From: Candidatus Omnitrophota bacterium
Lineage (GTDB): Bacteria; Omnitrophota; Gorgyraeia; 2-01-FULL-45-10
Direction of reading: 5' to 3'
Assembly (NCBI GenBank): GCA_026387175.1
Contig: JAPLME010000012.1
Location: forward strand, 139,429 to 203,428
Length of the DNA: 64,000 nucleotides
Shown here: positions 7,579 to 62,453 of the stretch, piece by piece
Position numbering within the stretch: position 1 is the first letter of the stretch
Layout of the letters: each line of letters begins with the position of its first letter
Position numbers and translations under genes: made by a program
The notes under the pieces: generated by a model
The model's input: the letters and a program-made list of their open reading frames with translations, nothing else
Told to the model about the DNA's origin: nothing
Database searches by the model: none

Positions 7579-7625
7579 AGATAGCCAAGCTGCCTGGAAC
7601 AAAGGTAGCTTGGCTATCTATTTAA
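7579..7625 (+). terminator. Probable rho-independent terminator after the first giant gene.
   Basis: Stem atagccaagct / agcttggctat with a 15-nt loop, followed by ctattt. The T-tract is weak. Confidence 0.5.
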
Positions 7626-25200: not shown

Positions 25201-28200
25201 ATGAGATTCTGGAAGAAGACAATTTCGATTTTATTGATCCACGCATTTTTGTTATCGAGCCTGCCGGCGGGAGCATTGCAGCCGGCTTTCGCCGCTGCGC
25301 TCGATAATACCCCAACTGCAACTAAAGAAATAACCACCAATCCGGAAAATATAATAATATCCAGAGATTACGGCATTGTAAAATCCAAATTCACAGGCAA
25401 GAGCGATAAACTCATAATCCACATCCAGGACGCTCACTGTAACTATGAAGCCCAGTCCAATATAGCGAAAATTATAGAAAGTCTCGTTAAGAATGACTCC
25501 TTAAGTTTCGTATCCGTCGAAGGAGCCGACGGCCTTATAGACACCTCATGGTTTAAGGCATTCCCGGACGCCGAAGTGAGAAAGGAAGTCGCCAATTATT
25601 TCATGAAGAAGGGCGAGATCACCGGGCCAGAATTTCTTTCGATCACTACAGACTACCCGATAAAGCTTTTTGGCGCGGAGACGCGTGAATATTATATCCA
25701 GAACCTCAATGCTTTCACCGCTAGTTATCCTTCAAAAGAAGAGACTGAGAAATATCTAAACGGCATAAAAGCTGTCCTGAATAAGCTCCAGAGCTTTATC
25801 TACAATGACGATTTAAAGGCCATGGATGCCAAGTCACGGGAACATGAATCTAAGAAGATCCAATTCAATGAATATGTGCGTTTCCTGCAGTCTGAGGCCG
25901 AGAAGCATAAGATCAATTTAAGGCAGTATGAAAATCTTTTTAAACTGATCAATGTCCTTACATATGAGAAGAAGATAGATTTCAGCGTGACTGATAAAGA
26001 GAGAAGCGCCGTTATAGATGAATTTAGCAAAGTTCTGCCAAAAGACATTCTGACGGAGCTTGTCAATAAATCGATATCTTTCAAAGTCGGCAAGATAGCT
26101 TCATCGGAATATTATGAATATCTAAGAAACCTCGCCGCGAAGAACGGTATAGAGCTTTTGAAGAATTATCCCAACCTCAGCAACTACATAATATATAACT
26201 CAGTATATTCGAAGATCGACAATGAGAAACTCTTCAATGATATAAAGGAAGTCGAGAGCGTGATAAAGGAGAAATTATTCGAAAATGAAGACCAGAGGAC
26301 CCTCGAGAAACTCTCACGTCACATAGACACTCTCCTCGGCCTCATTAATATAAAACTTCTTAACGGAGAATTTGACTACTATAAGACACATAAGGAAGAG
26401 TTTACGCCTGAAAGCTTTACGGATTTCATGAAGGCTAAGTCTATACAATTCGGCTTGGCTTATGAGACGGAACCTCCAGCCGCCACGGTCGCGGACAGCA
26501 TAACGAAGCTTGAGGATTTCTACGCTATTGCCATAAAGCGCGATAAGGCGCTTGTGGATAACACTCTGGAAGGGATGAAGAAGGCCGACCAGAAGATAGC
26601 TGTCCTCGTTACAGGCGGATTCCATTCCGAAGGCATGGCTAAGCTTCTGGAGAAACAGGGCATCTCTTACGTGGTCGTTTGCCCGAACATAACAAAGGAT
26701 GTTCCCACTCCATATATTCAGATTCTTACCAATCAACGAACCTCTTTTGAAGATATACTGTCTACTCCGCAAGAGCCTGTGAAACAGAACATGCTTGCGC
26801 CTGCGCTCCTATCGTGGACGATGGGATTGAAGCCGGAGGAATTCAATAGGCTATTTAAAAACTTTGCCGGCCTGAAAGATAGGGTGGGGGATGTTCAAGA
26901 TGCGTGGGTAAAAGAACACTTATTGCTATGGCTTCACAAGGCACTTCAGTATATGGGCCAGCATCGTATGGCACATGATAAGAATGTGCTGAAAGATGCT
27001 TATAGGATGGCTATTGAGCGTACGGCTCAGGCTGCAGGGCGTAGTATTGCGGAAGCAAAGGATACGGCAGAAGCTATTATCTCTTCCGAGGTATTTATCG
27101 CGGCATTCGACGCGGCATATTCTACTCTGACTGTGCCTGCTGTAGTAGACATAGCGCATAAGGCTGCCGGTTCCGATACGTCTGAGGAAGGAGAGGATAT
27201 CCCTGAGGACGAGAATATTCGGGAAAAGACCCATGGCGCCACCCTTACTAATGCGGTAATTAACCGTTCCATGGAGGCCCCCGGGACGCAATTTCTGACG
27301 ATATTTGACGCCAATAATCCTTCAGCTATGTTAAATGCACAAAAGATCAATACCAAATTTGCCGACATAGTTTATGATCTCGAGTCCGTTATTAAGGGGC
27401 TCGAGGATTCCGATATCAAGAATATAGTGCGCACTATCGAAGAGATAGGGTTCAATACCACCGAATTTGAAAAAGCTTTCACTAAAGAAAACCTTTTGGG
27501 AGTCCTAAAGTCTGGATCGGGATTTAAAATAAATCTTGTCCAGCCCAAAGAGGAGATAACGGGCTTGAAAGTTCCGGGAATAGCTATGCTACGAATGGGC
27601 TCGAACTATGGGCATTACAGTGTGAATAATAATTCCATCTACTGCGCGTGGGGTGCGGTCAATGCGTTACTCGAAGAAAATACCGGGCTGTCACGGCGTC
27701 TGATAGTGGCGCTTGCTCTGCATGAGCTTACGGAATACGCGGTTCTAAAGAAGATGTTTCCCGGAAAATCTGTAGCCGATGACGTTAATAGCGCTGAACG
27801 GATAGTGCACGAAGCCGCTCAACGTCTTGAAAAACTCGTCGTCGGCCTTGGCAGTACGGACAAAGTAAGTAAACTTGATGATAAACTTGCCCAGATCACA
27901 ACCGAATATTATAATGAATTTTCCCAGAGGCTCCTTGATATAGTGGTTAAGAATGCTAAATTGAACTCTGCAGACAAAGGGTACCTGTGGAGTATGTGGA
28001 AACAGCATATCGTGCGTTATACTTCATCCGGCGGCAGGAAGCAACTAAGGATCATAACGGATCGAAAATTGCTTGATAGCCCGAAATTCGATCCGCTTGT
28101 AGATGGCAACTTCCTGCTTGCGTCGATGCTTTCTGACAAAGAGAGAGAGACGATCCTGGGCGCTTTCGAATATTCAGATCTTAAAAATGACGAAGCGAAC

Positions 28201-31200
28201 GCCGAAGCGGCAAGACAGGTGGTTGTAACCGCTAACTCAATGGACGGCGGCCTCGGTGAAAGTACTGGACGCATGAAGTTCCTTCAAATGATGGCTGTGG
28301 AAAACGGTCTGTCTCCGAAGGTAGAAATGGGTGCGAAAGGGACGGACTTTGGATATTTTATGACTTATAAAGGCCATAAAGTGTTTGTAAGTATAGCAGA
28401 GGCGAAGCTTCTACAGTTATATCTGGCCGCTACGGCAACAGATATTGCCGGTAATAAAAAATTCGGCGGCATAAATTTCCAGCCGCTTGTGAATAAGGAC
28501 TCAAAAAAATCGTATAAAAACCTATTAAATAAGGTTTGTATATTTGACAGTCTTGACCCTAATGTGGAGCTTAAGCGGAGCTACAAGGATCTGCTTGAGG
28601 CCGCCGGGGTGAAAGTGTTCGATGATATGCTCGAGCAGGCCGATCTTCCCTGGATAGACATGGCGACTCATAATATAACATTGGGCTTAGATGAAGAGAG
28701 GCGCCAACCGGGCGGACACGGCCAGTGGGGTTTTTACTTTCTGTACGACGCCTATTCCTCGAAACCTCCCGATGACGGGAAGACGCATGTCAGGGTTTTT
28801 TATAATGGAGATAACCTCAATAGCAGGATCAATGAAAATATTGCCGGGGCCATGGTGAGAAATAGGTGGCCGATCGTGAAACTGACGACTATAGCGACCG
28901 GAATAGATAAGAAGGGCGGCAAGGACGGCGTCAGAATAAAGAAGGTAGGAGACAAGACTGTCTACATACCTGACCAAATGGAAGAGGCGGAGGCCAAAAG
29001 AGCCGGCCAGCTCGAAGAGTTCTATGGTGCCGGACTGGAAGGTGGCCTCGGGGAAAATAATAAACAGCCTTTCAATACTAATATGTTCTACATGAACATT
29101 ACATTGATTCATAGCGTAATGCGGGAACTGATGGAACAGGGATTGATCTCGGAAGAAAAATTCTATGACATCATCTCGCCTATATTGATACCTAGGGAGA
29201 AAGAGGATCCGGTGACTAAAGCTAAAGGTGCGTATGCCCCTATTGATGGAGCGATAGGCGTCGCTATGCACCATTTTAATGAATTTTTCCTGTTGAATAC
29301 CGATCCAAAGGTAAAAGCAGTGCTTGATAAATACGGAATCAAAAGGATGCTCTATTTTGTTAATGTTCCGCGGACGGAGTTCTTTACACCGGTAAAAAAA
29401 TGCTATGATATGTGGCTTCAGGCCTATAGCGACTATTATACTAAGATCGATACCGGAAGCTGGTCGCTGAAAGATTCCGAAGGAGCTGTAACGCCACCTG
29501 GCTTTGTTCTTATAGAACCACCGTTTGAGGAAAAAGATACGAAGAGTTATTGGAATGAAATGCAGAATGTTATCGATTCGTTCGGGCATGCCAGCACCAT
29601 ACAATTGAAATCATTAACCATCGTAGGTAAAATAATTGCGAAAGACGCCAAATTCATCGGCACCGTAGTTATAGAAAACAAAAATTCTCAGATTGTAGAT
29701 CTAAATCAACTGAGGGCTACTAATCCAGAGCTTGAAGCGCTCTATAGTGGGGACAAAGCTATCCTTAAAGATGTGCGAATCGTTATAAATAAGGATCTTT
29801 CGGTGACCGTAGAACCCATTAGCAAAGATGCCCGAATCACTGTAAATGAAGATTTCTCAGTGACCATCGAACCCAGCAGCACGAATGGGGACGTCGGCGC
29901 GATACGCGGTAACGGCGAAGGTGTCTCGGCGGAAGAACATGGCACGAGGACTCTCGGAAATGCTAATTATGACAGAGTCAAGGCCGCCCAGGAATATAGC
30001 CTGAACGGAATAATTGCGCGAAGATTTGATTCCGATAATGGAAACGGCAGCGTTGTTTACACCCTTTCTACCGAAAGAGATTATCGTCCATTCATGGGGG
30101 ATAAGAAAGTAGCAGGAATAAATATCGCTGATTTTAATAAAGACGGCGAACAGGCCAAACTTGAGCTGATCAAGAGGAGCCTCGTCGGAGAAAATATCAC
30201 ATTTTATATTATCAAAGGCTTAAAGGATAAGCTATTACAAAGCGGCATAGTTCCGGATCTGATGTTCCATCCGGGCGTGACGAGACGCGCCATATATATG
30301 GATGAAGGCGATTTCAGGTATCTGCTCTCTTTGGAAAACGGCGTCGATATCATAGCAGAGGCTGTGAAGCACGAAAAGGCTCACATGAAAGATTCTTCAG
30401 CAACAGAAGCAGCGGTTGAGAAAATAGCCCCGATCTATAACGTGAGGTTGGCGTTTACTTTAAGGGATGTGGCCCAGAATAGGGCTAAGATGGAGATTGA
30501 AAACAGACAATTCGAAGTCGGTAAGGAGTATGAACCGGGCAAAGTTTATCAGAAGCCTCTTCCAAAGTTCGCGAAGTTTGGGACGAGCGGCGTCAGGTGG
30601 CTGACATGGGATATATTTGAACAATTCAGACAGGCCGCGGAAAAAGTTAAAGCAGGCAAGGCTGATATCACCGCGCAAGACAGAGAGTTTGCAAGGAAGT
30701 ACGATGTCCTTGTGTCGAACGGTTACACGCAGGCGGACTTTACTATGCCTAACATCGGACTCGTAACGAAATCGATAGCTCTTTACAATTTAAAGAAAGC
30801 TCAAGGATTGTATGAGACCGTTTCCGGGACGACCGATGATTTCAGGAAGAAACTCGAGGAGAAGGGCTTGCTCCTATTCTACGATAACCGCCCGGGGAAT
30901 TTTGAATATGTAAAAGAGATGGCGCGGATACTTGTCTCATACGGTATAAAGGTAACATTAAATAAATTCGAAAATAAATTTACTCCGGTACTCATAGCAT
31001 CCATGAGCTTACTCATAAAGAGAGAAGGGTATGCGGGCGGATTATATTTAACAGCCAGCCATAACGGCGATGAGTGGAACGGTATTAAATTTAACGCGGA
31101 AGACGGCGCGCCGTCAATGCCTAAAGTTACTGACGCTATAGGCGCGATACTTGCGGAGGAGATCGGCCGCGAAAAGCCGGGATACGATAGAGCCAAAAAA

Positions 31201-34200
31201 GATGTGGAAGGCCTTATGGCCGACGGCAAAATAGCGGCCATGGACGCCACGCGATATTATGTTGATGCCGTCCTGAACTATATGGGGCCGGAGAGAGTAG
31301 AGGCCGTAAAACAGGCGATCAGGGAGAAGAGAGTTACATTCATATACAGCGCGTTTTATGGAAGTTCCGGCCTTGCCATGAAGATGCTCTGTGAGCGTCT
31401 CGGAATGTCGGAAGAGACTATAGAAAAAAATATAATTGAGATCGAAAAACCAGGTGAGGGCGTTTACGTCGCAAGTTACGAACCTACGCTGGAGAAGCTC
31501 GAAGTTCTTAAAGCGAAAGTTGATAAAGTGGTAGCTGATATAAAGGATCAGGGTGGAACTCCGATAGTAATAGGAGGTTCAGCCGATAATGACGCTGACA
31601 GATTCCAGGTTAACGAGAATGGAGAAGAGTATATACCCGGGAGGCTTACGGCTATACTTGGTCACTACCTTGTTACTTCGAGAAACTTGCGCGGTAAAGA
31701 TGTGCTGTGGGGCAGAAGCTTCGTATCCAGTCACTACCCGGACGAAGTAGCGATGCTTTTCGGGCAGAAGACGCAAGTAGAGCCCACAGGATTCAAATTT
31801 TCCCCGTCCGTTTTGGCTAAAGGCGGCGTAATATTTTACGAAGAAAGCTATGGCCAGTCATTCTGGGACTGGACACTCGATAAGGACGGTGTCTTACCGG
31901 CAATATTAGCGCTTGAACTTGTAGCGACTACAGGCAAGAGCCTCGCGGAATATGAAAAAGGTATTAAGAATGAACTGAAGGCGGCAGGATTACTGTCAGA
32001 ATTTCATTTCGAACGGGATGACAAGCGTTTACCCGGAGATGTTAAAGACAATGCCGTAAAATTATTTAAAGAATTCTTTAACGGTATTGTGGTAAACCAG
32101 ACCACCTTCGCCGGAAAGAAGATAACCGAAAAATATGATTCTGCTAAATTCGGCGGGATGAAATTTGTTATGGAGGACGGCAGTTGGATCGCTCTGCGCT
32201 CATCCGGGACTGAGCCGGTCATACGTGTCTATATGGAAGCTAAGGATGCTGCGGCAGTCAACGTATTGCGTCAGGCGGCCCTTGTATTGATGGCGCTTAA
32301 TGCAGAGAGATCCAAAACAGAGACTGCAGGTGCTGTAGAGGGCGGAAAGAAACTGCACACGCCTCTCGACGCAAAAGGCGATAAGGCGCTCGCGGCCGGC
32401 TTCCTGAAAGCAGGATATAATAAGGAAGGCAAGACCGCCAACATCGGGTATGGTGTCGAAGAAGGGGCGGTAATCGATGGATCGTTCGCCACAGAGGGCG
32501 AAGGCATCCAGGGTTATTATGTCGATAAAGGAAAGCAATTTCTAGCTACCATTAAGGATATGAGAGATTTCTTTGCCAGACGCGCGCAAATATTAGGTAA
32601 GAATATAAAATATGTAATAAAACCGGGTATTGGCGGCCAGCACACGCCGTTCCAGGGTATCGCTGAAGTCTTTCAGGTGATCGATACGGAAACCGGAATG
32701 GTCGTAGGCGAATACGAGCTGGGTAAGAATTACGAAGAAGCGCTTGGTAAAGTGTTGGCAGGGCTTGGTGCCGACTGGGACCAGATTGCGGTGATCCCGA
32801 GCTCGAAATCAGGCTCCACCGATGAGACGATGATGATATTCAGCGAAATCTTCTACACGCTCCTTAAGAAGATAGCCGAGAAGCAGGGCCTTAACGGCGA
32901 ACAGTTCTCCGACACCTTCTTTAATACATTGCATGATATAAATTTCGAGAATGGCGTCGAACGGAAGGGCGCGGATCTCTTTAAGGGATTCAGTTTGACG
33001 CTCCTTACGAATAATCTGAAAGCCGTTCCGGGATTCAAGACAGACTATGAACAGGTGAGAAATGTGTTCCGTGTTGTATTGGGAAACATGTTCTTTGAGA
33101 CTACCGATAGGCCCTCACAGAGCCGTCTCGCGGCCTTTATTAAAAACTCGGGCCTCGATAAGGAGCTGGGTGAAAAATACGCGCCCGGATTCGGCGCGAT
33201 GTTCGACAATGTCGGCGGACGCTGGACAGCGGACCTTCATATGATGACCTTCCTGGCATATCATAATATGACCGATGAAGAGATAATGGCGTATTGGCAG
33301 AGCCGGTATAACGGCATAAATGAAGTCCGTAACGGTACGCATCTGGCTAATAGTCTCGCGAAGAAGATACTCGACGAAGGGATCACCGATATAGCTCTGG
33401 TCGTTCCGAACGAGCTATTCTGGTTCGGTAAGTCCATAGAGCAGAACTTTAACGAATCTATCTGGCAGGAAGGTTTCGCTAATCTGGTCGCCGTTAAAGC
33501 GAGTAATTGGGAATACCAAAAAGCTAACTATTCCGGTAAATCGAAACGGCTTGTCGTGGATATTACCGGAGCAGAACTCGATATGAAAGGCTGCGATCTC
33601 TTTAAAGTGCCCGCGCTTTATAGCGGTACAGCGGCAGCCAAGACAAAAGAAAATTTGGCTATAGAGCTCGGAAGGCTGTCTACAACATTCTATGGCACCA
33701 CATACACCGTCGGGACGAGGCTCATAGATAGAGCGTTGGCGCGCGAAGGATATACGTGGGCCGATGTCGATATCAATAATCTGAATAATCCGGCAACGAG
33801 GATCATACAGCGCAATCTCTATTTGCGGCAGCCGTATGTAGAACTCGGCAAAGGGCTATTAGAACAGAAGATGGGTCTTTTTCAAGAGGCAGGCCCTAAA
33901 GCTATACAGGCAGAAGTTGCTAACATACAGGATGACGCCAAGCGCGGCAAACTTATCTCTAATATTGAAGAGTTAGGGCTTCCTGATAATGTAACTGATA
34001 TGCGGACACTGGCCAAGACTATATTTAAGGCTGTCAAATTTGCCGAGAAGGAGAATCGTAAGTTCGTGCCGTTCATATATCTGGAAGGCGAGAAGTTCTA
34101 TGAATTACGGGAGGCTCTTGTAAAACTCGGCATCGAATGGGTTATGCAGGGTACCGGCGACCAGCATATCAGTTATCAGCAGGTCCTGGCGCAGCCGCAA

Positions 34201-35151
34201 AAGTATCTGCCGTTCATAATTTCATTCGTTCCTGAGAAGATGCTCCCGGGCAGGCCCGCGATCGGATTCGCCAAAGGCTACCTGAATAATGTAAGCTCGA
34301 ATATGGTGAGGGACCTTTTCGCGGAGGCATCCTATAGGGCATTGACAGAGCCGAGAACGGACGAGGCAGGACAAAGCGTCCAGGGCGCGATGGGCATCTT
34401 CCTTCGCTTACAGGATTCGCAAGAGAACAGGACTATGCTTAAAGAGTCGTTCAAAGAGGCGATCACAGGCCCGCGCGTAGTAGAAATGACGATAACACCT
34501 AGGGCAGCAGCGAATAAGCCGGAGGCCGCACGTGAGGAGTATATTTACGATACCTATGTTAAAAATGACGCGGCAGCGCTTCACCAGACTCTCGTCGGAC
34601 TTGGGGTCAATACTGAGTTGACGAAAAACAAACAGGTGCTGATACTCTACGATACGGCGATAGATCCGACGGTGGATACAACTCATGTAGCGCACGCGGG
34701 TGAGGTTGCCGTAAAAAAATACATGAATGAGGCGATAATAGAAGTTCGCGGCACAGGTAAGGCTCTTTACGAAGCGGCCAAAGCGCAAGCTGGAAATTTG
34801 AAAGGGCCATACGCGATTGTTACGATAGCCGGGGACGTGACTTTGAGGGAGATAGGCACGGAAGGCTTGAAGGACCTCGGCAAGGTAATCAATGTGCAGA
34901 ATCCTGATAACAGGTATATCCCGGTCATTGGATTGTATGATCTTGCGCTCAGGATCGCATATGATCTCGGTGATGAAAAGATACTCGAATGTTTAAACAG
35001 GATCGCTACAAAGGATCCTAATTTTACGCCGTTTACCTTAGAAGATCTAAGGAAAGGTATGATAACAATACTGCCGAAGATCAGGCCTGTCGATATGGCC
35101 GAGGCTGTTGAAGCCTATAAGGCTGCGCAGGCAGCTCTTAAGTCGCTGTAA
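25201..35151 (+). CDS. Giant secreted multidomain protein (3316 aa) embedding a UTP-glucose-1-P uridylyltransferase-like domain, an alpha-D-phosphohexomutase (PGM/PMM) domain and a phosphoglucose isomerase domain.
   Basis: RBS ggagga. Signal-like N-terminus MRFWKKTISILLIHAFLLSSLPAGALQPAFAAA. TANSMDGGLGESTGRMKF (28221-28280) UGPase-like. FGTSGVRW (30578), TASHNGDEWNGIKF (31051-31095) and RSSGTEPVIRVY (32197-32235) are PGM signatures. KPGIGGQ (32622) and SSKSGSTDET (32800-32830) are PGI signatures. Confidence 0.85.
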   Translation: MRFWKKTISILLIHAFLLSSLPAGALQPAFAAALDNTPTATKEITTNPENIIISRDYGIVKSKFTGKSDKLIIHIQDAHCNYEAQSNIAKIIESLVKNDSLSFVSVEGADGLIDTSWFKAFPDAEVRKEVANYFMKKGEITGPEFLSITTDYPIKLFGAETREYYIQNLNAFTASYPSKEETEKYLNGIKAVLNKLQSFIYNDDLKAMDAKSREHESKKIQFNEYVRFLQSEAEKHKINLRQYENLFKLINVLTYEKKIDFSVTDKERSAVIDEFSKVLPKDILTELVNKSISFKVGKIASSEYYEYLRNLAAKNGIELLKNYPNLSNYIIYNSVYSKIDNEKLFNDIKEVESVIKEKLFENEDQRTLEKLSRHIDTLLGLINIKLLNGEFDYYKTHKEEFTPESFTDFMKAKSIQFGLAYETEPPAATVADSITKLEDFYAIAIKRDKALVDNTLEGMKKADQKIAVLVTGGFHSEGMAKLLEKQGISYVVVCPNITKDVPTPYIQILTNQRTSFEDILSTPQEPVKQNMLAPALLSWTMGLKPEEFNRLFKNFAGLKDRVGDVQDAWVKEHLLLWLHKALQYMGQHRMAHDKNVLKDAYRMAIERTAQAAGRSIAEAKDTAEAIISSEVFIAAFDAAYSTLTVPAVVDIAHKAAGSDTSEEGEDIPEDENIREKTHGATLTNAVINRSMEAPGTQFLTIFDANNPSAMLNAQKINTKFADIVYDLESVIKGLEDSDIKNIVRTIEEIGFNTTEFEKAFTKENLLGVLKSGSGFKINLVQPKEEITGLKVPGIAMLRMGSNYGHYSVNNNSIYCAWGAVNALLEENTGLSRRLIVALALHELTEYAVLKKMFPGKSVADDVNSAERIVHEAAQRLEKLVVGLGSTDKVSKLDDKLAQITTEYYNEFSQRLLDIVVKNAKLNSADKGYLWSMWKQHIVRYTSSGGRKQLRIITDRKLLDSPKFDPLVDGNFLLASMLSDKERETILGAFEYSDLKNDEANAEAARQVVVTANSMDGGLGESTGRMKFLQMMAVENGLSPKVEMGAKGTDFGYFMTYKGHKVFVSIAEAKLLQLYLAATATDIAGNKKFGGINFQPLVNKDSKKSYKNLLNKVCIFDSLDPNVELKRSYKDLLEAAGVKVFDDMLEQADLPWIDMATHNITLGLDEERRQPGGHGQWGFYFLYDAYSSKPPDDGKTHVRVFYNGDNLNSRINENIAGAMVRNRWPIVKLTTIATGIDKKGGKDGVRIKKVGDKTVYIPDQMEEAEAKRAGQLEEFYGAGLEGGLGENNKQPFNTNMFYMNITLIHSVMRELMEQGLISEEKFYDIISPILIPREKEDPVTKAKGAYAPIDGAIGVAMHHFNEFFLLNTDPKVKAVLDKYGIKRMLYFVNVPRTEFFTPVKKCYDMWLQAYSDYYTKIDTGSWSLKDSEGAVTPPGFVLIEPPFEEKDTKSYWNEMQNVIDSFGHASTIQLKSLTIVGKIIAKDAKFIGTVVIENKNSQIVDLNQLRATNPELEALYSGDKAILKDVRIVINKDLSVTVEPISKDARITVNEDFSVTIEPSSTNGDVGAIRGNGEGVSAEEHGTRTLGNANYDRVKAAQEYSLNGIIARRFDSDNGNGSVVYTLSTERDYRPFMGDKKVAGINIADFNKDGEQAKLELIKRSLVGENITFYIIKGLKDKLLQSGIVPDLMFHPGVTRRAIYMDEGDFRYLLSLENGVDIIAEAVKHEKAHMKDSSATEAAVEKIAPIYNVRLAFTLRDVAQNRAKMEIENRQFEVGKEYEPGKVYQKPLPKFAKFGTSGVRWLTWDIFEQFRQAAEKVKAGKADITAQDREFARKYDVLVSNGYTQADFTMPNIGLVTKSIALYNLKKAQGLYETVSGTTDDFRKKLEEKGLLLFYDNRPGNFEYVKEMARILVSYGIKVTLNKFENKFTPVLIASMSLLIKREGYAGGLYLTASHNGDEWNGIKFNAEDGAPSMPKVTDAIGAILAEEIGREKPGYDRAKKDVEGLMADGKIAAMDATRYYVDAVLNYMGPERVEAVKQAIREKRVTFIYSAFYGSSGLAMKMLCERLGMSEETIEKNIIEIEKPGEGVYVASYEPTLEKLEVLKAKVDKVVADIKDQGGTPIVIGGSADNDADRFQVNENGEEYIPGRLTAILGHYLVTSRNLRGKDVLWGRSFVSSHYPDEVAMLFGQKTQVEPTGFKFSPSVLAKGGVIFYEESYGQSFWDWTLDKDGVLPAILALELVATTGKSLAEYEKGIKNELKAAGLLSEFHFERDDKRLPGDVKDNAVKLFKEFFNGIVVNQTTFAGKKITEKYDSAKFGGMKFVMEDGSWIALRSSGTEPVIRVYMEAKDAAAVNVLRQAALVLMALNAERSKTETAGAVEGGKKLHTPLDAKGDKALAAGFLKAGYNKEGKTANIGYGVEEGAVIDGSFATEGEGIQGYYVDKGKQFLATIKDMRDFFARRAQILGKNIKYVIKPGIGGQHTPFQGIAEVFQVIDTETGMVVGEYELGKNYEEALGKVLAGLGADWDQIAVIPSSKSGSTDETMMIFSEIFYTLLKKIAEKQGLNGEQFSDTFFNTLHDINFENGVERKGADLFKGFSLTLLTNNLKAVPGFKTDYEQVRNVFRVVLGNMFFETTDRPSQSRLAAFIKNSGLDKELGEKYAPGFGAMFDNVGGRWTADLHMMTFLAYHNMTDEEIMAYWQSRYNGINEVRNGTHLANSLAKKILDEGITDIALVVPNELFWFGKSIEQNFNESIWQEGFANLVAVKASNWEYQKANYSGKSKRLVVDITGAELDMKGCDLFKVPALYSGTAAAKTKENLAIELGRLSTTFYGTTYTVGTRLIDRALAREGYTWADVDINNLNNPATRIIQRNLYLRQPYVELGKGLLEQKMGLFQEAGPKAIQAEVANIQDDAKRGKLISNIEELGLPDNVTDMRTLAKTIFKAVKFAEKENRKFVPFIYLEGEKFYELREALVKLGIEWVMQGTGDQHISYQQVLAQPQKYLPFIISFVPEKMLPGRPAIGFAKGYLNNVSSNMVRDLFAEASYRALTEPRTDEAGQSVQGAMGIFLRLQDSQENRTMLKESFKEAITGPRVVEMTITPRAAANKPEAAREEYIYDTYVKNDAAALHQTLVGLGVNTELTKNKQVLILYDTAIDPTVDTTHVAHAGEVAVKKYMNEAIIEVRGTGKALYEAAKAQAGNLKGPYAIVTIAGDVTLREIGTEGLKDLGKVINVQNPDNRYIPVIGLYDLALRIAYDLGDEKILECLNRIATKDPNFTPFTLEDLRKGMITILPKIRPVDMAEAVEAYKAAQAALKSL

Positions 35152-35172
35152 CACTGTAGACCATATATTAAG

Positions 35173-35210
35173 AAGAGGCGTAGGGAAAGCCCTACGCCTC
35201 TTTTCTATTT
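35173..35210 (+). terminator. Rho-independent terminator of the giant gene.
   Basis: gaggcgtaggg-aaag-ccctacgcctc followed by ttttctattt. Confidence 0.75.
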
Positions 35211-35213
35211 GGA

Positions 35214-35440
35214 GAGCGAAGGCGAAAATATCATGGCGGCTATGACGGCAGCAGGGATTTTTTAGGGGTGACGCTCTTTCCAGCCTTTTTTCGAATAAGA
35301 GGCGGTACGTAGTGGGGCTTATCACGATCGACTAGTGTTACGTGCAAGAGTCGGACACAGCCTCGCATAGGAAAAAAGGCGAAAGAGCGGCAGGACCCCT
35401 AAAAAATTTGTGGTATCGGTATGTGAGGACCCGAAGAATA
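35214..35440. ncRNA. Structured intergenic element A (candidate ncRNA or MITE-like repeat), closed by a long-range stem.
   Basis: GGCGAAAATAT (35216-35226) is the exact reverse complement of ATATTTTCGCC (35427-35437). Nested inner helix ATTTTTTAGGGG (35250-35261) / CCCCTAAAAAAT (35395-35406). Homologous element at 62086-62375. Confidence 0.4.
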
Positions 35441-35460
35441 TTTTCGCCGGGGCTGAGATA

Positions 35461-35488
35461 TTGCCTATTTGCCGTTATATGATATACT
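35461..35488 (+). promoter_or_regulatory. Sigma70-like promoter upstream of the conserved leader.
   Basis: TTGCCT, 16 nt spacer, TATACT. This places the TSS about 10 nt before the palindromic leader. Confidence 0.45.
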
Positions 35489-35503
35489 TATATACAAATA
35501 TAA

Positions 35504-35560
35504 GGCCGATGTCAGAGACATCGGCACTTAGCTATCACTATGGCAGAATAAACTAGGAGA
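35504..35560 (+). promoter_or_regulatory. Conserved palindromic leader element, copy 1.
   Basis: GCCGATGTC-AGAG-ACATCGGC perfect dyad (35505-35525), then ACTTAGC...ATGGCAGAATAAACTAGGAG. Near-identical copies at 47588 and 59813. Confidence 0.6.
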
Positions 35561-35564
35561 TAAA

Positions 35565-36245
35565 ATGCCAAAGATGCCTAAAAGAAGAAATTATTTCATA
35601 AATAGAAAGTTCCAGCTAAGATACACCCTATCGATAGTCGCTATACTTGCCGTAGTGATGATCGCCAGCGGTGTAGGTATCTATTTCGGCATGTGGGGTT
35701 CGATCATAGAGAATTTCTCCCAATTTAAAGTCTCGCAAAATCTCGAGACTGCCAAACGCATAACTGATTATGAAGACGTTCGATACAGGAAAGGCGACTA
35801 TCGTCTTGAAAAGATATTCAGGGAGGCGGAACTGTTGAGCGCCCAGCAACAGGACGCTCTTAAGAACGCTCTGAAGGCGGTTAACCACTCTCTCTTCCCG
35901 AAGATAGCAGTGCTCGCCGTCATAATATTCATCGCCGGCATATTTATTTCCCATAAGATAGCCGGCCCGATGTACAGGATAGAAAAATCGGCCGAGTCTA
36001 TACGTGACGGAGACCTTTCCGTCAGCTTCAGGGTGCGAAAAGGCGACGAGATGAAAGAGGCCTCCACCGCGCTTGAGGAGATGGTGGACTCCCTGCAGGC
36101 AGATTTCGTCAAGATAAAGACAGCCGGTAAGGCGCTCGACGAGAGAATAGGGTTCATCGAGCCTCAGATAAAAGGAGAGGACGCGCGGCGGCTGAAAGAC
36201 ATAGTCAAGGTGATAGATGAGGTACTCTCCAAATATAAGACATGA
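35565..36245 (+). CDS. Small membrane protein: two TM segments plus a HAMP domain and no output domain.
   Basis: RBS aggag. TM1 LSIVAILAVVMIASGVGIYFG and TM2 IAVLAVIIFIAGIFI. HAMP-like IAGPMYRIEKSAESIRDGDLSVSFRVRKGDEMKEASTALEEMVDSL. The stop overlaps the next start (ATGA). Confidence 0.7.
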   Translation: MPKMPKRRNYFINRKFQLRYTLSIVAILAVVMIASGVGIYFGMWGSIIENFSQFKVSQNLETAKRITDYEDVRYRKGDYRLEKIFREAELLSAQQQDALKNALKAVNHSLFPKIAVLAVIIFIAGIFISHKIAGPMYRIEKSAESIRDGDLSVSFRVRKGDEMKEASTALEEMVDSLQADFVKIKTAGKALDERIGFIEPQIKGEDARRLKDIVKVIDEVLSKYKT

Positions 36246-47571: not shown

Positions 47572-47587
47572 GAGTTTAAAAAATACA

Positions 47588-47650
47588 GGCCGATATCAGG
47601 GATATCGGCACTTAGCATACAATATGGCTGAATAAACTAGGAGCGATCTT
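47588..47650 (+). promoter_or_regulatory. Conserved palindromic leader element, copy 2.
   Basis: GCCGATATC-AGGG-ATATCGGC (47589-47609) with compensatory G>A/C>T changes relative to copy 1, then ACTTAGC...ATGGCTGAATAAACTAGGAG. ATG at 47652. Confidence 0.6.
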
Positions 47651-47651
47651 T

Positions 47652-50600
47652 ATGGGGCAGGGCAATAAAACTTTGTTCAAAAACGTTATTCGTGTCGGTT
47701 GTCTTACTGCATATACCCTGATTACGCTATCGGCCGGATTTATTTTACCGCTTGCCGGTGCCGAGGAGCGTCTTGCCGCGGTAAACGATCCGACCGGTTT
47801 TAGTATACTGGAGGCCGAAGAGAACGGGATGTTTAATATCGGCCCCGCGATAGGAGGCGTCGATACCGAGGCCGACGCGTCGCTCAAGAAAAATGTATTT
47901 AAATTCGACTATACGATATTCCCCGGGGCCATCGTTGGCCTTTGGACGAAGACTTATCCCGCTAAGTTCAGGGCAGACATAGTTGACGCGGTCAAGGCCG
48001 GCGTAAAAGTGCAGAATCCCGTTCAACTCGATGAGGTTACGGTTAAGCTTGAGATAAAGGGCGATAGGGGGGTGCAAAGCGCGCCGGTACATCTGGAAGA
48101 ATCGGGATGGAGCTATATAAATGAGCAGGTGGATTGGGAGAGGATAGGAAAGCTTACTGAAGTCGTTTTTGTAGTCAGTCCGAAAGACAGCAAGAAACGC
48201 CTCGAAGGAATAATTTATTTCGATCTTAATTTTTACAAATTGACGTTCCTGCAGAAGTACGTTATAGCGATAAAAGCCGGGCTGGTCCTTTTAGCGGGAC
48301 TTATACTGGCGCTTATAGCGGCGATTGCCGGTATGCTCTTTGGTAAAAAGCCCGCTCCGGAGGAGAAGAAACCGGCCCTATCCGGCATTGGCAGGGATAT
48401 TCTCTACGGCATAGTTGTGGTAATGACTTTAGGCGCCGCGATGAAGATATATTATCTTGGGATGGCCAACCCTCTGAATGCGGGTTTTAGTTACGCGTTC
48501 CTCGCGGTAGGATTAATAGGCGTCCTTATCGCCGAAGTTTTGAAATTTGTCCTGGCCGGCAGACACCTTACGGCAGCTGAGGTTTTCCAAAATGTCCTGG
48601 TTTCGGGTCTTCTGGCGGCTTCATCGAGCAGGTTTGAGCTTTTACAGGCGCCGGCATCGTGGGTCCAGCTCTTGATGTTAAGTAATCTTATATCGGCGCT
48701 TGCCTTCATAATTTACCATTTTGCCAATGCCAGGTCGATAGTCTCTTCCGGCAGGCACTTAAAAGTGATTAGTGGTTCGCTGATAGCCGGAACGCCGTAT
48801 CTTTTCAACTGGCTGCTTCTTCTGGGAAGCGTCGGCATGCTCAGGATAATAGGTAACGGCGCAACCTTTGGGCTCATCGCGACATGGCCGGCCATATCCG
48901 AACTGACAGGCAGGCTGCTTGTCATGTTCGTCTTTAATGAAATTGTCACCAACAGCATTTCCATCGCGACTAAAAATAAGGTTGTTAAGACTCTAAGGGC
49001 CCATCTGATAATGTTGTTGGTCTCTTTAGGAGTTGTTATAGCTCCGGTGATAGCGAATTTCGGTTCCGGTGCGTTGATCGCAAAACTGCCTATGGTTCTG
49101 AGAGCCTTTGCCGCTATCCTGACGACGGCTCTTTCCTACGGCGGCCTGTGGGGCGAGGTTTATCTGATAACGGGCGCTCTGCTCGACGCCGGCAAACATA
49201 TAGCTCCTTCAGCCGATATCATCTCTAAACATGTCAGCACAGGTATAAAAAAAGGTATGGCATATAGCGCTATATTGATGGGGATGATGTATGCGCTCAG
49301 CATCATATTGAACGCGCCGATGTCGCAGAAGGTGATGACAAGCGCGCCTATAATAATCGGGATCTTCGCAGGCGCGGCTCTCTTCCCGCTGGTTAAGACC
49401 ATAATCGAGAGCTTTGACGGCAGTATACGGTTCTTTGAAAGAGTTAAATATAGCTACGAGGATCTGACTTTATGCGCCAGGGGCGCTGTCGCAGGTTTCG
49501 GGTTCGCCTATATGGCCACTAATAACCTGTTCGCGCATAATATGCCCGACAGGATCCTATTCGGCCTTTTGGTAGGCCTATTGGCGTCCGGCGGTGTCAG
49601 CATCCTGAGGGATGGATGGTATGCGCTAAGAGGCCGCGGGAAGATACAGTCCTGGAGGCTCTATTTTGTCGATTCGCTTCTGGGAATTTTCGTGGGAAGC
49701 GCCGCGGCATTCTATATGGATTCTCTGCAGGTTCCGGTGGTTGTCGAAAAGTTCAGGCTATATCTCAGCTCGAATCTTCCGCCGGCCGATTATATAACTT
49801 ACCCTCTGGTCAACAAATGGGGCCGCATAGATCTCGGAAGCTATACCGGCGGAGTTAAGCTGCTTTACACCGAGTCGGTAGCCGGAGTCATCAACTGGTC
49901 GATCGCCGCATGGCTATTCGCTATAAACAAAGTATTTTTACAGGCATTTTTTGAGAAGGACAAGACCCCCATTAAGTTCTTTTTCTCGAAGGCCGGGTTC
50001 GCCCAGCTGATCGAACATATGATATATGTATTGCGATGGGGTCTATGGATGTCGCCCATCATATTCACGTTCCTGCGTATGATGCCGGACCCGACCTGGT
50101 ATAACCAGGACGGTGCTATCCATACGGTCTTTGCCGTTTTTAATAATATGACGATGACTCCGGAGGCGTTCAGGGCATGGAGCCTGCAGGTCTTCGTATG
50201 GATACTGGCCCTCGACTGGTTCCGCATTCTTATATGGATGGACCATATGGGACTGCGCGTAGCCACTCTCGTTAACTTAAGCTTCATCGGAATGGACAGG
50301 CTCGATGAGAGGATAGGGCGCTTTATCGGCCCGGCGTCGGCCCAGCGGTATATTCCGGAAGGCGTGAAACGTTTCGCGACATGGGCGCCGCTACTCATTC
50401 CTTTTTATCTTCCCAGAGGAAAAGAATGGGACTATGCCTGGAACACCTCGGTGGCGATGCAGAACGCCTCCGAAGGCAAGGGAATACTTTTTGCAATACA
50501 GCGCCTTGCGTTGCCGCAGATGATCATCCTGATATGTTCGGCCATACTTGCATGCACTGTCATTTCCTTCGTTGTGCGCGCGTTAAGCCGGAGATCGCGC

Positions 50601-53600
50601 AAGCGCCGCATCACCTCTTATGAGCTCGTCAACAGAGAATACAAGGTTGTGATCAGGGAGTCCGGCGATATATACAGCGAGGTCACCGGCAGAGAGAGCG
50701 ATGTCAGCAGGCGTTCTTATGACACGATAGACCCGTGCGGCAGGATATTGTATGTGGTAGATGCTTCCGAAAGATCCGCCGCCAATAAACGCGCATGGCC
50801 GGTAGTGGGTAACTTCCCGGCCGGCAAGTTCGAAGCGTCCAACATCGAGAAATGCGGCGATGCTTTCAGAATAATTAATACCAGTAACGGCGTCAAGACG
50901 ACTGTGGAGATCAGCCTGCCCGACCAGGATTCCACGGCGGAGGTGTGGAAGGTAACGGTCGAAAATATGACCGATAAGCCGCGCCAGTTAAAGGTCGTCC
51001 CGTATCTGGAGTGGGTATTGAACGGCGGCATTCATGACAGGTTCCATACGCAGTATGCGAGGCTCTACCCGGAGATGGAATATATCAGCAGGGCAAATGC
51101 CGTGCTGTCATGGCAGAAGGCCACCAAATCGATGGGCATACTGGCCTCGGAGATGCCTACGGAAGGGTTTACGGCTTCGCGCGTCGATTTCATCGGCCGC
51201 GCCAGAAGCATCTGGAACCCGCGCATAATGGATAACCTGGACTTTATGCCGAGCCGCGACACTTCCGGCTATCCGACGTTCGATCCCATCGGAAGCCTTA
51301 TCGTAAATGCCGCAGTGGGGCCAAGGGCTTTCGCGACGATGCGGTTTATGATAGGTTATTCGAAGGATCGGGATAAAGCTCTGGAGCTTATTAAGAAACA
51401 CCTGAACACCCAGAGCGGAGACGCTCTCCCTGCTCCGGAAAAGAAGAAGAGGGCGCTCTTGATCGGCCACGGCGAGATACCGCCCGGGACTCCGCAGCCG
51501 TATTCTACATTTTCCGGAAATGGAAACTCGCTGATCGTCCATACGCCGTATACGCCCAGGCCCATCGACCATGCCATGTCGAATGCCATACATTCCGTGA
51601 TGGTGACCAACCGCGGCCTTCACACATCCTGCAACGGCAATTCACAGCAGAACCGTCTTACGCCGGATTGGGCCGATACGGTTACAAGGGAGATCCCTTC
51701 GGAGGCGATCTATCTTTTCGACCAGGACCATAATGAATGGTACTCGCCGACATATCATCCTTTGAACGACGGAAGCGCCAAATATGAATCTGAGTTCAGC
51801 GTAGACGGAAGCGCGATATTCCGCATGTCCAAAGGGACCATCTCGACGGAGCTGACCATATTTGTGCCGCCGGAAGATACGACGGGAGTCTATCTATTGA
51901 CCGTAAAAAATAACGCGGACAGCTCCAGGCGCATAAGAGTATCCCCTTATTTCCAGATGGTGATGGGTTTCATGCCTGAAAAGTCCGGCCCCCTGGGAGG
52001 GCGTTACGATAAAGCGTTAGACGCTTTATTCTATGAGAACCCCCGCAACATATTCCGTTCAGGGCGGGCGTTCGTTTCGATGTCCATCCCGAGCCAGGGC
52101 TTCGAGGTGAAGCGGGGAAGGTACTTCGGTTCCAGGTGCGCCGTCGCGCATCCGTTCATGGTGGAGAACGGCATGCCGGACGCCGCTCAACTTACCGATG
52201 AGGCCCAGATAGCTGGGCTTCTCGGGACCATCGAGGTCCCCGCGCACGGAGAGCAAACGGTCGCGATCATCCTCGGACAAGCCGACGACAAGAAGGCCTG
52301 CGCCGCGATAATCCGGAAATATAAAGACATCGAAAAGGTCAGGAAATCTCTTGAAGATACCCGCAAATGGTGGCTCAGCCTGATGGCAACGGTTAAGGTT
52401 GAGACCAATAGCCCTGAGTTCGATCGGTATCAGAACTGGCTCAAATATCAGGCGCTGGCCGAACGTATATGGGCAAGAAAAGGTTTCTATCAGACCAGCG
52501 GCGCGTATGGTTTCCGCGATCAGCTCCAGGATACCGTTAACTTGATCTGGATCGATCCGGCCCTTGCGCGCAAACAGATAATCCTGCATGCGTCCCAGCA
52601 GTTCATCCAGGGAGACGTTTTCCACTGGTTCTTCACATTGACGGACGGCCGTACGGCGTTCTCCTGCCGCTCGCATGCCTCCGATAACCCGGTATGGCTG
52701 TCGTGGGGAGTAGCCGAATACATCAGGACCACGGGAGACCATTCGATATTGGATGAGATGACCTCTTATGTGGAGTCGGAGTTTCCTTTCGCGAAACTTC
52801 CTAAGAATAAACAAGGGTGGGGGCATCTGTATCACAGGACGACGAGATCCGATACGGTTTACAGGCACTGCATGAGGTCGATAGATCTTATCCTGAACGA
52901 CCGGACAGGTAAAAGCGGATTGCCGCTTATCCAGGTCGGAGACTGGAACGACGGTCTCGATGAGATAGGATCGGAAGGCAGGGGCGAGAGCGTATGGCTG
53001 GGATTCTTCCTGTACTATATCCTTAATGAGATGGTGGATATTATAGAAGCCAAAGACGGCCCCGCGCGCAAGAACCATTATGTAAAGAAGATGGATGCGC
53101 TTAAGAACGCTCTGGAAAAGACCTGGAGAGAAGACAGATATCTGCGTGCCATCCACGATGACGGCACGGAGATAGGCATTAAAGGAAGCGGAGTATGGGA
53201 GATAGATGCGCTGACGGCATCGTGGGCGGTAATAAGCGGTATCAATTTCGAGCGGGGACTTGCAATATTTAATACCGCTCTCAAGATACTCGAAAAAGAT
53301 AACGCTATATTGCTGGGATGGCCGGCCCTGCGCGAAGATACTAAGCCGTATCTGGGCAGGAGCAGCAAATATCCCGAAGGCGTACGCGAGAACGGTATGT
53401 ACTGCCACGGCGTTCAATGGCTTGTAAGGGCCGCGCGCATTCTTGCGGAGGAGTTCGAAAAACAGGGGAATCACGCCAAAGCCGATGAGTACAGGGCAAC
53501 CGCATACAGGTTATGGCTCAAGATATCGCCGATCGCCCATATGAAGCCGGGAGAGATCGAGATCTACGGAGGCCAGCCCAATAAACAGGCGGCGGATGTC

Positions 53601-53804
53601 TTGACAAACTTTGAGCCCGGACGAATGATATGGCACGGGTATACCGGCGCCGCCGGATGGATGCTGCGTCAGGCCATGGAAGGCGTAGTGGGAGCGTCTC
53701 TGGCAAAGAATGAGATGATCCTGCCGAAAGACCTGGATCGTCCGAGAGGCGGTTTAAAAATAAAGAGCGTGCAGAGGGACGTGAGCAAGAGCCCTTTTAA
53801 GTAA
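47652..53804 (+). CDS. Giant membrane protein (2050 aa): N-terminal CBM-like module, about 20 TM helices, and a C-terminal GH94-family glycoside phosphorylase domain (cellobiose / beta-1,2-oligoglucan phosphorylase-like).
   Basis: Strong RBS. Hydrophobic helices from aa ~200-980. C-terminal region has GH94 hallmarks including the catalytic GDWNDGLD (near 52930) and NGMYCHGVQW. Confidence 0.7.
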   Translation: MGQGNKTLFKNVIRVGCLTAYTLITLSAGFILPLAGAEERLAAVNDPTGFSILEAEENGMFNIGPAIGGVDTEADASLKKNVFKFDYTIFPGAIVGLWTKTYPAKFRADIVDAVKAGVKVQNPVQLDEVTVKLEIKGDRGVQSAPVHLEESGWSYINEQVDWERIGKLTEVVFVVSPKDSKKRLEGIIYFDLNFYKLTFLQKYVIAIKAGLVLLAGLILALIAAIAGMLFGKKPAPEEKKPALSGIGRDILYGIVVVMTLGAAMKIYYLGMANPLNAGFSYAFLAVGLIGVLIAEVLKFVLAGRHLTAAEVFQNVLVSGLLAASSSRFELLQAPASWVQLLMLSNLISALAFIIYHFANARSIVSSGRHLKVISGSLIAGTPYLFNWLLLLGSVGMLRIIGNGATFGLIATWPAISELTGRLLVMFVFNEIVTNSISIATKNKVVKTLRAHLIMLLVSLGVVIAPVIANFGSGALIAKLPMVLRAFAAILTTALSYGGLWGEVYLITGALLDAGKHIAPSADIISKHVSTGIKKGMAYSAILMGMMYALSIILNAPMSQKVMTSAPIIIGIFAGAALFPLVKTIIESFDGSIRFFERVKYSYEDLTLCARGAVAGFGFAYMATNNLFAHNMPDRILFGLLVGLLASGGVSILRDGWYALRGRGKIQSWRLYFVDSLLGIFVGSAAAFYMDSLQVPVVVEKFRLYLSSNLPPADYITYPLVNKWGRIDLGSYTGGVKLLYTESVAGVINWSIAAWLFAINKVFLQAFFEKDKTPIKFFFSKAGFAQLIEHMIYVLRWGLWMSPIIFTFLRMMPDPTWYNQDGAIHTVFAVFNNMTMTPEAFRAWSLQVFVWILALDWFRILIWMDHMGLRVATLVNLSFIGMDRLDERIGRFIGPASAQRYIPEGVKRFATWAPLLIPFYLPRGKEWDYAWNTSVAMQNASEGKGILFAIQRLALPQMIILICSAILACTVISFVVRALSRRSRKRRITSYELVNREYKVVIRESGDIYSEVTGRESDVSRRSYDTIDPCGRILYVVDASERSAANKRAWPVVGNFPAGKFEASNIEKCGDAFRIINTSNGVKTTVEISLPDQDSTAEVWKVTVENMTDKPRQLKVVPYLEWVLNGGIHDRFHTQYARLYPEMEYISRANAVLSWQKATKSMGILASEMPTEGFTASRVDFIGRARSIWNPRIMDNLDFMPSRDTSGYPTFDPIGSLIVNAAVGPRAFATMRFMIGYSKDRDKALELIKKHLNTQSGDALPAPEKKKRALLIGHGEIPPGTPQPYSTFSGNGNSLIVHTPYTPRPIDHAMSNAIHSVMVTNRGLHTSCNGNSQQNRLTPDWADTVTREIPSEAIYLFDQDHNEWYSPTYHPLNDGSAKYESEFSVDGSAIFRMSKGTISTELTIFVPPEDTTGVYLLTVKNNADSSRRIRVSPYFQMVMGFMPEKSGPLGGRYDKALDALFYENPRNIFRSGRAFVSMSIPSQGFEVKRGRYFGSRCAVAHPFMVENGMPDAAQLTDEAQIAGLLGTIEVPAHGEQTVAIILGQADDKKACAAIIRKYKDIEKVRKSLEDTRKWWLSLMATVKVETNSPEFDRYQNWLKYQALAERIWARKGFYQTSGAYGFRDQLQDTVNLIWIDPALARKQIILHASQQFIQGDVFHWFFTLTDGRTAFSCRSHASDNPVWLSWGVAEYIRTTGDHSILDEMTSYVESEFPFAKLPKNKQGWGHLYHRTTRSDTVYRHCMRSIDLILNDRTGKSGLPLIQVGDWNDGLDEIGSEGRGESVWLGFFLYYILNEMVDIIEAKDGPARKNHYVKKMDALKNALEKTWREDRYLRAIHDDGTEIGIKGSGVWEIDALTASWAVISGINFERGLAIFNTALKILEKDNAILLGWPALREDTKPYLGRSSKYPEGVRENGMYCHGVQWLVRAARILAEEFEKQGNHAKADEYRATAYRLWLKISPIAHMKPGEIEIYGGQPNKQAADVLTNFEPGRMIWHGYTGAAGWMLRQAMEGVVGASLAKNEMILPKDLDRPRGGLKIKSVQRDVSKSPFK

Positions 53805-61863: not shown

Positions 61864-62085
61864 ATTTTTTGGTCTTCATCACCCGTCCCTTGCGGGGTGG
61901 GTATCTCGCGGGGACGCGAAATTTCCCCTGCGAGGAAATTTCGCTCTGAAAAGATCGCTCGCTCTTTTTGGCATACAGGTATACAAGGGCCAAAAATCCG
62001 TGCCCGCTCGCGACTTTCGACGCCCCGCTCAACACCCACCCCGCAAGGGCCTGCTGAGTAGGCCGAAAAATTTACTGGGGAAGCG

Positions 62086-62375: not shown

Positions 62376-62453
62376 GTAGCGAAGAGTTTTGAGATTGACA
62401 CGACGGGAGTTTTATAGTAACCTTAATAATCACAAACTTACGAGGGAGAATAT

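Follow-up and report, generated by a model that had tools for sequence, protein, structure and literature searches.

The 64,000-nt stretch of Candidatus Omnitrophota contig JAPLME010000012.1 analyzed here (positions 139,429 to 203,428; hereafter the window) carries two intergenic elements, A (35215-35449) and B (62082-62376), each of which folds into a single long rod. Together, A and B most likely constitute a small non-coding palindromic family (family 1) confined to one Omnitrophota clade, with a third rod, I1, directly upstream of B as the representative of a second, related family. Judging from sequence comparison, we consider the chances about even that A and B are lineage-restricted, nested, non-autonomous foldback insertion elements, similar to miniature inverted-repeat transposable elements (MITEs), BOX, or ERIC. 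The original prediction had proposed either a structured non-coding RNA (ncRNA) family or a MITE. The latter is the better supported, while a conserved RNA gene of the RNase P, transfer-messenger RNA (tmRNA), or 6S kind is disfavored by the lack of an Rfam family, the absence of the elements from relatives, and the location of the promoters 3' of the elements.

Element A is a 235-nt rod between the terminator of a 3316-aa open reading frame (ORF) and the promoter of a HAMP-domain protein gene, whereas the 295-nt rod B lies between I1 and the bioY promoter (all features are on the + strand unless marked). In A, the conserved 5' block AGCGAAGGCGAAAATATCATGGCGG (35215-35239) includes the 5' arm of the closing helix P1 (GGCGAAAATAT, 35221-35231), and the conserved 3' block AGGACCCGAAGAATATTTTCGCCG (35426-35449) includes its 3' arm (ATATTTTCGCC, 35438-35448). 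In B, the 5' arm GCGAAAATATCTT (62089-62101) pairs perfectly with AAGATATTTTCGC (62362-62374). The perfect terminal inverted repeats (TIRs) of A span 11 bp, and those of B and of a further copy at the bioY locus of a relative (L119) span 13 bp. At their core is the decamer GCGAAAATAT, which occurs exactly four times in the window as two inverted pairs, 35222-35231(+)/35438-35447(-) in A and 62089-62098(+)/62365-62374(-) in B. Likewise, the shared 25-nt 5' block AGCGAARGCGAAAATATCWTGGYGG and the 24-nt 3' block AGGACCCGRARRATATTTTCGCCG match only A and B when three mismatches are allowed, with zero matches expected by chance (none in 100 shuffles). The copies can thus be described as a shell, composed of the 5' block AGCGAAG-GCGAAAATATC-NTGG and the 3' block (G)CAGGACCCGaaG-ATATTTTCGCC, around an interior that is exchanged between them.

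Nested within P1, helix P2 of A (ATTTTTTAGGGGT/ACCCCTAAAAAAT, 35257-35269/35395-35407) delimits the segment 35257-35407 in the inverted-repeat listing, and B contains the helix CTTTCGTAAAATCTTGAT/ATCAAGATTTTACAACAG at 62164-62181/62252-62269. Identical terminal stems, shared blocks, and nested helices had all been noted in the original prediction, and each of them is present. The ends of the elements required correction: the 3' arm of A reaches 35448/35449 instead of 35440, and the 5' blocks begin at 35215 (A) and 62082 (B). The boundaries of A were set by the shared blocks together with the points at which similarity to the related loci L151 and L040 resumes. A long-range inverted repeat of 11-13 bp is by itself not unusual, as the window contains 35 pairs of at least 11 nt within 400 nt, several of them intragenic. 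The significance of the elements therefore derives from the shared blocks and the folds of the whole elements rather than from the terminal stem alone. No credible ORF is found inside A, B, or I1 (213 nt). The ORFs of at least 60 aa that touch them are all antisense and without family support, namely 35047-35325(-), 62275-62466(-), and, overlapping I1, 61593-62039(-) and 61796-62035(-).

Both elements fold exceptionally well. Element A reaches a minimum free energy of -92.9 kcal/mol (z = -5.5) and B of -114.2 kcal/mol (z = -7.7), with no shuffled sequence folding as well in either case, while coding controls of equal length range from z = -1.4 to +0.5. Among the other spacers, comparable folding is restricted to the spacer that holds a riboswitch with a terminator and the one with a terminator-like hairpin; the spacer 47572-47651 is intermediate (z = -3.0).

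The third rod, I1 (61862-62074), is of the same kind and had been missed in the original prediction. This 213-nt foldback, with a z-score of about -6 to -9, begins inside the stop codon of a 339-aa ORF and has its arms at 61866-61921 and 62015-62070. Over 143 nt, the I1 core (61906-62047) matches the reverse complement of L038:195-333, a sequence at the HAMP locus of another species, with 84% identity (E = 1.5e-33).

The three rods are further connected by perfect stems of at least 9 bp with a GCGAA...TTCGC foot. Four such stems exist in the window against 0.04 expected, and all of them lie within the rods: P1 of A (35222-35447), P1 of B (62089-62374), a hairpin in I1 (GCGAAATTTCC cctgcga GGAAATTTCGC, 61916-61944), and a second one in B (GCGAATTTACAT gccta ATGTAAATTCGC, 62269-62297). 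Because of this confinement, the foot may serve as a common recognition signal for the agent that forms or mobilizes the rods. In GCGAAAATAT, GCGAAATTTCC, and GCGAATTTACAT, the foot is followed by an A/T-rich run, and GCGAA-footed stems are also seen at L038:295-323 and L119:1358-1566.

Comparison of the bioY locus among relatives reveals that the spacer length differs in discrete steps. In L121, L122, and L123 (BioY 77-80% identical), the spacer before bioY is 72-81 nt long and empty; in L120 (89%), it measures 153 nt and holds a terminator hairpin only; in L119 (91%), it extends to 362 nt and harbors a 47-nt hairpin plus a family-1 element; and in the window, I1 and B occupy 590 nt. The gene order ROK, M48 peptidase, 339-aa gene, bioY, PMT is complete in L121 and L122, the other relative contigs being shorter. 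In the gene table of P0122 (BioY 92%), bioY follows a 129-nt spacer and a 438-aa gene, not the 339-aa one. Across the gaps, the flanks align as TAA/TAG-ATTTTT ... CGGGG ... AGTTTTGG-ATTGACA, and the empty site reads TAA-TATTTTTC-TAACGGGG-AGTTTTGGATTGACA. In L119 and in the window, ATTTTT(C/T) is followed by a first inserted block and CGGGG/GGGTG by a second, after which come AGTTTTGAG and the conserved TTGACA promoter block. At the position of the 213-nt I1, L119 has only the 47-nt hairpin (ATTTTTCGGC...GCCGAAAAAT), while the position of B is taken by a family-1 element of ~217 nt (L119:1351-1567). Immediately to the right of this element, at L119:1565-1600, a 9-bp tandem duplication AGTTTTGAG-AGTTTTGAG is present, which is a single copy in the window. 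It could reflect slippage or be left over from an element that duplicated 9 bp and was later excised.

The HAMP locus shows a similar pattern of presence and absence. In L042, L043, L044, and L047 (HAMP protein 61-65% identical), the giant gene, its terminator, and the promoter are kept, and the promoter follows the terminator directly with no element between them. In L038 (70%), a P1 variant, GGGCAAAAATATC/GATATTTTTGCCC, closes a rod of 231 nt, and the contig of L040 (84%) begins with TTTTCGCCGGGG, the 3' end of an A-like element, that is, inside P1. L151 (91%) has no element; its upstream gene is different, synteny is broken, and similarity to the window starts at ~35450. Overall, the element is absent from L120 and L151 (89-91%; L151 with broken synteny) and from all relatives at or below 80% except L038. 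The HAMP promoter (TTGCCT-16-TATACT) and the bioY promoter (TTGACA block) are located downstream of the elements and are conserved with or without them. Thus, the elements are neither 5' leaders nor needed for the promoters.

Two further loci, L032 and L033, encode a HAMP protein identical to that of the window behind different upstream sequence, and their spacers are filled by other rods. Upstream of the HAMP gene, L033:380-960 (NCBI JBGGGY010008785.1) belongs to another repeat family and forms a foldback of ~400 nt, in which the repeat GGATGGATAGCCGGCCAGTGGGCCTCGCC... occurs in two direct copies (~509 and ~742) and one inverted copy (~862-902). Sequences at L033:180-340 resemble tRNA genes on the opposite strand in appearance. 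The rods of L032 are wholly different from the filling of L033.

The relationships among the copies do not follow the loci. The element of L119 resides at the bioY site and is closer to A, at the HAMP site, than to B. A and the L119 element are 76-77% identical over ~63 nt at each end, with unrelated interiors. They share P1, an asymmetric loop (YTGGCG on the 5' side, AGGACCCGAAG on the 3' side), and P2, and both possess a second GGCAGGACCC motif. P2 is formed by GATTTTTTAGGGGT/ACCCCTAAAAAAT in A and by GATTTTTACGGGT/ACCCGTAAAAATC in L119, a difference that includes a swap of G-C to C-G. Further inward, P3 and P4 occupy the same positions in unrelated sequences with pairing retained, and in an RNAalifold comparison of these two sequences 14 of the 51 pairs are changed on both sides. 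B firmly shares only the outer 25 nt per side.

The most complex arrangement is found at the HAMP locus of L038, where the arms and core of I1 lie reverse-complemented inside the family-1 P1 stem (GGGCAAAAATATC/GATATTTTTGCCC). The arms match with compensating changes. With HAMP proteins that are 70% identical, 84% identity is far above what would be expected for a neutral spacer, and the two sequences occupy different loci in opposite orientations.

Presence and absence at the same sites among relatives, related copies at two loci, replaced interiors, and a nested inverted copy together imply that these segments are gained, lost, and recombined on a short timescale. Like MITEs, they are short and without coding capacity, possess TIRs, and are polymorphic for presence at orthologous sites. 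Such behavior would fit interspersed palindromic repeats of the MITE, BOX, ERIC, or REP type rather than a conserved RNA gene. Pfam scanning of the window proteins identified no transposase, integrase, or reverse transcriptase. This result, together with the lack of an internal ORF, indicates that the elements are non-autonomous. We therefore envisage the following scenario. By insertion, the elements would have come to lie between the end of one gene and the promoter of the next, presumably with the mobilizing enzyme supplied in trans from another place in the genome. New palindromic modules may then land in the apex of a hairpin already present or take the place of that apex, which would generate nested rods and could account for spacer growth from ~75 nt to ~590 nt. 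Neighboring genes might be affected, for instance through an A/T-rich tract at the distance of an UP element from the -35 hexamer or through rods that act as RNase III or stability hairpins in read-through transcripts.

Several observations weigh against an insertion element of this type. Only two family-1 copies are documented in one genome (in 64 kb), and nhmmer searches with both shell profiles detected no further copy in ~1.1 Mb of fetched loci, which stem mostly from other organisms. Among 185,579 species-representative genomes, the exact 5' block has six matches, all of them coding, in unrelated phyla, and none with the 3' arm. In IMG/VR, the 3' block and the I1 core have no match, and the 27 matches to a looser 5' block all lack the 3' arm. 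Moreover, no autonomous partner with the same inverted repeats was found, the window containing no transposase, and there is no clear target-site duplication. All five copies are oriented like the neighboring genes, and the conserved motifs are asymmetric, GGACCC being confined to the 3' half; neither would be expected of a symmetric TIR transposon. Finally, pairing that is kept through a complete change of sequence fits selection on the structure of RNA or of single-stranded DNA equally well. A functional RNA, or an intermediate that is single-stranded, would be consistent with the uniform orientation, the asymmetric motifs, and + strand folds that surpass those of the - strand by 3-11 kcal/mol in all four family-1 copies.

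Other searches delineate the family as narrow. In the blastn 'distant' mode, I1 plus B has no match in plasmids and phages, and A has none in plasmids. A stem pattern AAAATATC...GATATTTT recovers only B and L038. Thus, true matches are missing from species genomes, IMG/VR, plasmids, and phages, and the fetched loci hold no more. GAG or GAAG flanks A, B, and the L119 copy, with one GAG at the empty site of L122; at 3-4 nt, in three copies, and with uncertain element ends, this is within chance.

In architecture, the foldback insertion elements favored here come closest to BOX of Streptococcus pneumoniae and to the TIR-type MITEs Correia and ERIC, while no sequence similarity to BOX, Correia, ERIC, REP/RAYT, or IS200/IS605-derived elements was found. 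BOX elements are modular boxA-boxB(n)-boxC intergenic repeats of high copy number without a transposase of their own. A and B share with them the non-coding, intergenic nature, paired terminal modules around a variable interior, long hairpins, and the lack of an own transposase, but in place of a tandem array of one module, the interiors are palindromic fillers unrelated to each other, among them an inverted copy of another element. With Correia (Neisseria) and ERIC/IRU (Enterobacteria), they have in common a length of 100-300 bp, the lack of coding capacity, TIRs, an intergenic position near promoters or terminators, and variable presence, and with ERIC also size variants through internal insertions. 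In contrast, Correia and ERIC copies are alike over their full length, whereas A and B share only the outer 25-65 nt; moreover, all A/B-type copies have the same orientation, and no parent insertion sequence (IS) is known. The TA target duplication defined for Correia has no defined counterpart in A and B.

The REP/BIME/REPIN elements (RAYT, TnpA-REP, Y1) and the IS200/IS605-derived PATEs resemble A and B in hairpin recognition, in a short foot (here GCGAA...TTCGC), and in intergenic clustering or nesting. Strand-specific orientation and asymmetric ends are a further likeness and would fit single-strand transposition. However, REPs are 20-40 nt long and number in the hundreds, the two ends of a PATE each form a subterminal hairpin of their own whereas those of A and B pair together, and no RAYT or TnpA gene was seen within the window. 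Integron attC sites likewise combine conserved ends with a variable center, preserve structure over sequence, and are strand-specific between co-oriented genes. Unlike attC, the conserved blocks lack the R''/R' core sites (RYYYAAC/GTTRRRY), the elements are 220-300 nt rather than 55-141 nt long, the flanking genes are syntenic core genes and not cassettes, and the Pfam scan of the window ORFs showed no integrase.

The principal alternative, which we regard as unlikely, is that A and B are copies of a genuine structured ncRNA, either a trans-acting rod or a cis element in read-through or 3'-untranslated region (UTR) transcripts. The parts that matter for function would be the closing stem P1, helix P2, and the asymmetric loop with UGGYG and (G)CAGGACCC, leaving the distal rod free to vary. 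Such an RNA would explain the very strong folds, the better folding of the + strand, and the conserved motifs, which are unpaired, asymmetric, and always on the gene strand. It would also account for a shell kept across two loci and two genomes, for the G-C to C-G swap in P2, for the complete covariation of P3 and P4, and for occupation of the same two sites in some relatives (L119, L040, L038). However, in helices that are DNA palindromes, two to four sequences do not allow covariation to be distinguished from module replacement. Interiors are swapped wholesale, in L038 by an inverted copy of the other element, which is behavior at the DNA level, and absence at 89-91% flanking-protein identity does not befit a conserved gene. 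Transcription signals are also lacking: between the terminator (35173-35202) and the start of A at 35215 there is no room for a promoter, and consensus scans detected neither a promoter ahead of A nor a terminator behind P1. G-U pair counts favor neither strand (17 versus 16).

Known RNA families offer no match either. At the gathering score, Rfam 15 recognizes nothing at A or B, its sole match in the whole window being a c-di-GMP riboswitch elsewhere. At E<=10, both loci give only chance matches on the adjacent terminator or on short hairpins and none to 6S models. ARAGORN found no tRNA or tmRNA. A and B resemble 6S RNA as long rods with internal loops and a closing terminal stem, but differ from it in this lack of a match, in their absence from close relatives, and in the existence of at least two divergent copies with replaced interiors.

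Distinctly unlikely in our view is that the shell (P1, the loop with UGGYG and GCAGGACCC, and P2) forms the functional core of an undescribed single-strand-active element, be it an Omnitrophota-specific rod RNA or a hairpin-targeting mobile element. In the latter version, the element would move as a folded single strand and insert into the apex of other hairpins, with the GCGAA-footed stems as the unit recognized by the enzyme.

We are equally doubtful that the rods are immobile and grew in place by template switching or snap-back synthesis at terminator hairpins, with gene conversion spreading their ends. In line with this idea, rods begin exactly at a stop codon or terminator, and the extra segments of L119 and the window end distally in an inverted copy of the native sequence beside their proximal end (native ATTTTTC followed by ...GAAAAATC; CCCTTGCGG matched by CCGCAAGGG). 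The tandem duplication of AGTTTTGAG in L119 would be a sign of local slippage. However, growth in place cannot explain the same asymmetric 25-nt and 24-nt blocks at loci 27 kb apart, nor the inverted, 84% identical I1 core at another locus in another species, and gene conversion requires pre-existing homology between the copies. It is highly improbable that the P1 arms are operator half-sites of a DNA-looping regulator or an UP-element-like A/T tract with an incidental interior: the 3' arm ATATTTTCGCC does end 12-20 nt upstream of the -35 hexamer at both loci, but the promoters are conserved and presumably functional in relatives without the element, and the self-complementarity and nesting of the interior are left unexplained.

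Other candidates were rejected. A biotin riboswitch upstream of bioY is incompatible with the conserved promoter downstream of B, the absence of B in relatives, and the position of A before an unrelated operon. A retron, an attC site, a group II intron remnant, and a self-cleaving ribozyme were dismissed in view of the missing reverse transcriptase or integrase and the lack of an Rfam match. The genes right downstream of the elements encode the HAMP-domain protein and BioY and not the reverse transcriptase called for by a retron msr/msd.

Independent short-read assemblies (Logan, different runs) break at or beside the rods. Those Logan contigs that carry the 339-aa gene stop at ~61934-61940, of the ten with bioY nine start at 62296, just after the GCGAA hairpin of B (the remaining one at 62336), and contigs with the HAMP gene start at 35503-35504. 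In the same way, the JGI contig L040 starts inside P1. Repeats, strain-level insertions or deletions, or hairpin-induced loss of coverage could underlie these breaks. As short-read contigs consistently end at or beside the elements, the latter probably contribute to the fragmentation of metagenome-assembled genomes.

Omnitrophota are an uncultivated phylum whose compact genomes are co-directional and contain giant genes. A literature search returned nothing relevant on interspersed palindromic insertion elements in this phylum, and if confirmed, A and B would be the first description of such elements found. Upstream of the HAMP gene, their positions coincide with breaks in synteny, and they could act as strain markers. 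Their nested build of shell and interior, together with the GCGAA...TTCGC foot, would provide a handle for finding the mobilizing enzyme. The case for a regulatory or RNA discovery is weak, and the overall importance is accordingly modest.

The HAMP-domain protein and BioY of the window are both 100% identical to proteins of an NCBI metagenome-assembled genome, encoded on a 251-kb contig. Throughout the window, all ORFs of at least 150 aa that are not nested in a larger ORF lie on the + strand. Four of them are giant: an ORF of at least 2477 aa (69-7502), one of 3733 aa (7661-18862), the 3316-aa ORF upstream of A (25201-35151), in which phosphoglucomutase/phosphomannomutase domains I, III, and IV are embedded at residues ~1876-2358, and a 2050-aa ORF (47652-53804) with C-terminal GH94 supersandwich and catalytic domains. 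In the neighborhood of these four lie a sugar ABC transporter and several 'Glycoamylase' (PF10091) genes. The intergenic spacers are short except for two, 35152-35564 (413 nt) and 61864-62453 (590 nt), both of which hold elements.

In the first of these spacers, the terminator-like hairpin of the 3316-aa ORF (35173-35202), a perfect 13-bp stem followed by TTTT, ends 12 nt before A. The promoter-like site of the HAMP gene (35461-35488), in which TTGCCT and TATACT are combined with an extended TG, begins 12 nt downstream of A, and the gene itself occupies 35565-36245. Its presumed 5' UTR contains a 9-bp hairpin, GCCGATGTC aga GACATCGGC (35505-35525), which the scan marks as terminator-like on the - strand. 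The hairpin is shorter in L151 and thus also varies among close relatives.

In the second spacer, the block TTGAGATTGACACGACGGGAGTTTTATAGTAACCT (62389-62424) upstream of bioY (62454-63038) is conserved in all relatives, including those with an empty spacer. Judged by its conservation, it is probably the promoter and perhaps overlaps the operator of a biotin-responsive repressor. The motif TTGACACGACGG(G/A)...TATAGTAACCT of this upstream block stands out from its surroundings by much stronger conservation, which extends to relatives with a BioY only 77% identical (L119-L123).

The single Rfam match of the window, a c-di-GMP-I-GGC variant riboswitch (RF03167), is located at 7519-7598(+), ~60 nt upstream of the 3733-aa ORF, and reaches 60.8 bits (gathering score 59; E = 7e-12). 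An 18-bp hairpin at 7578-7620 (94% complementary) overlaps the 3' end of the riboswitch and could serve as its expression platform.

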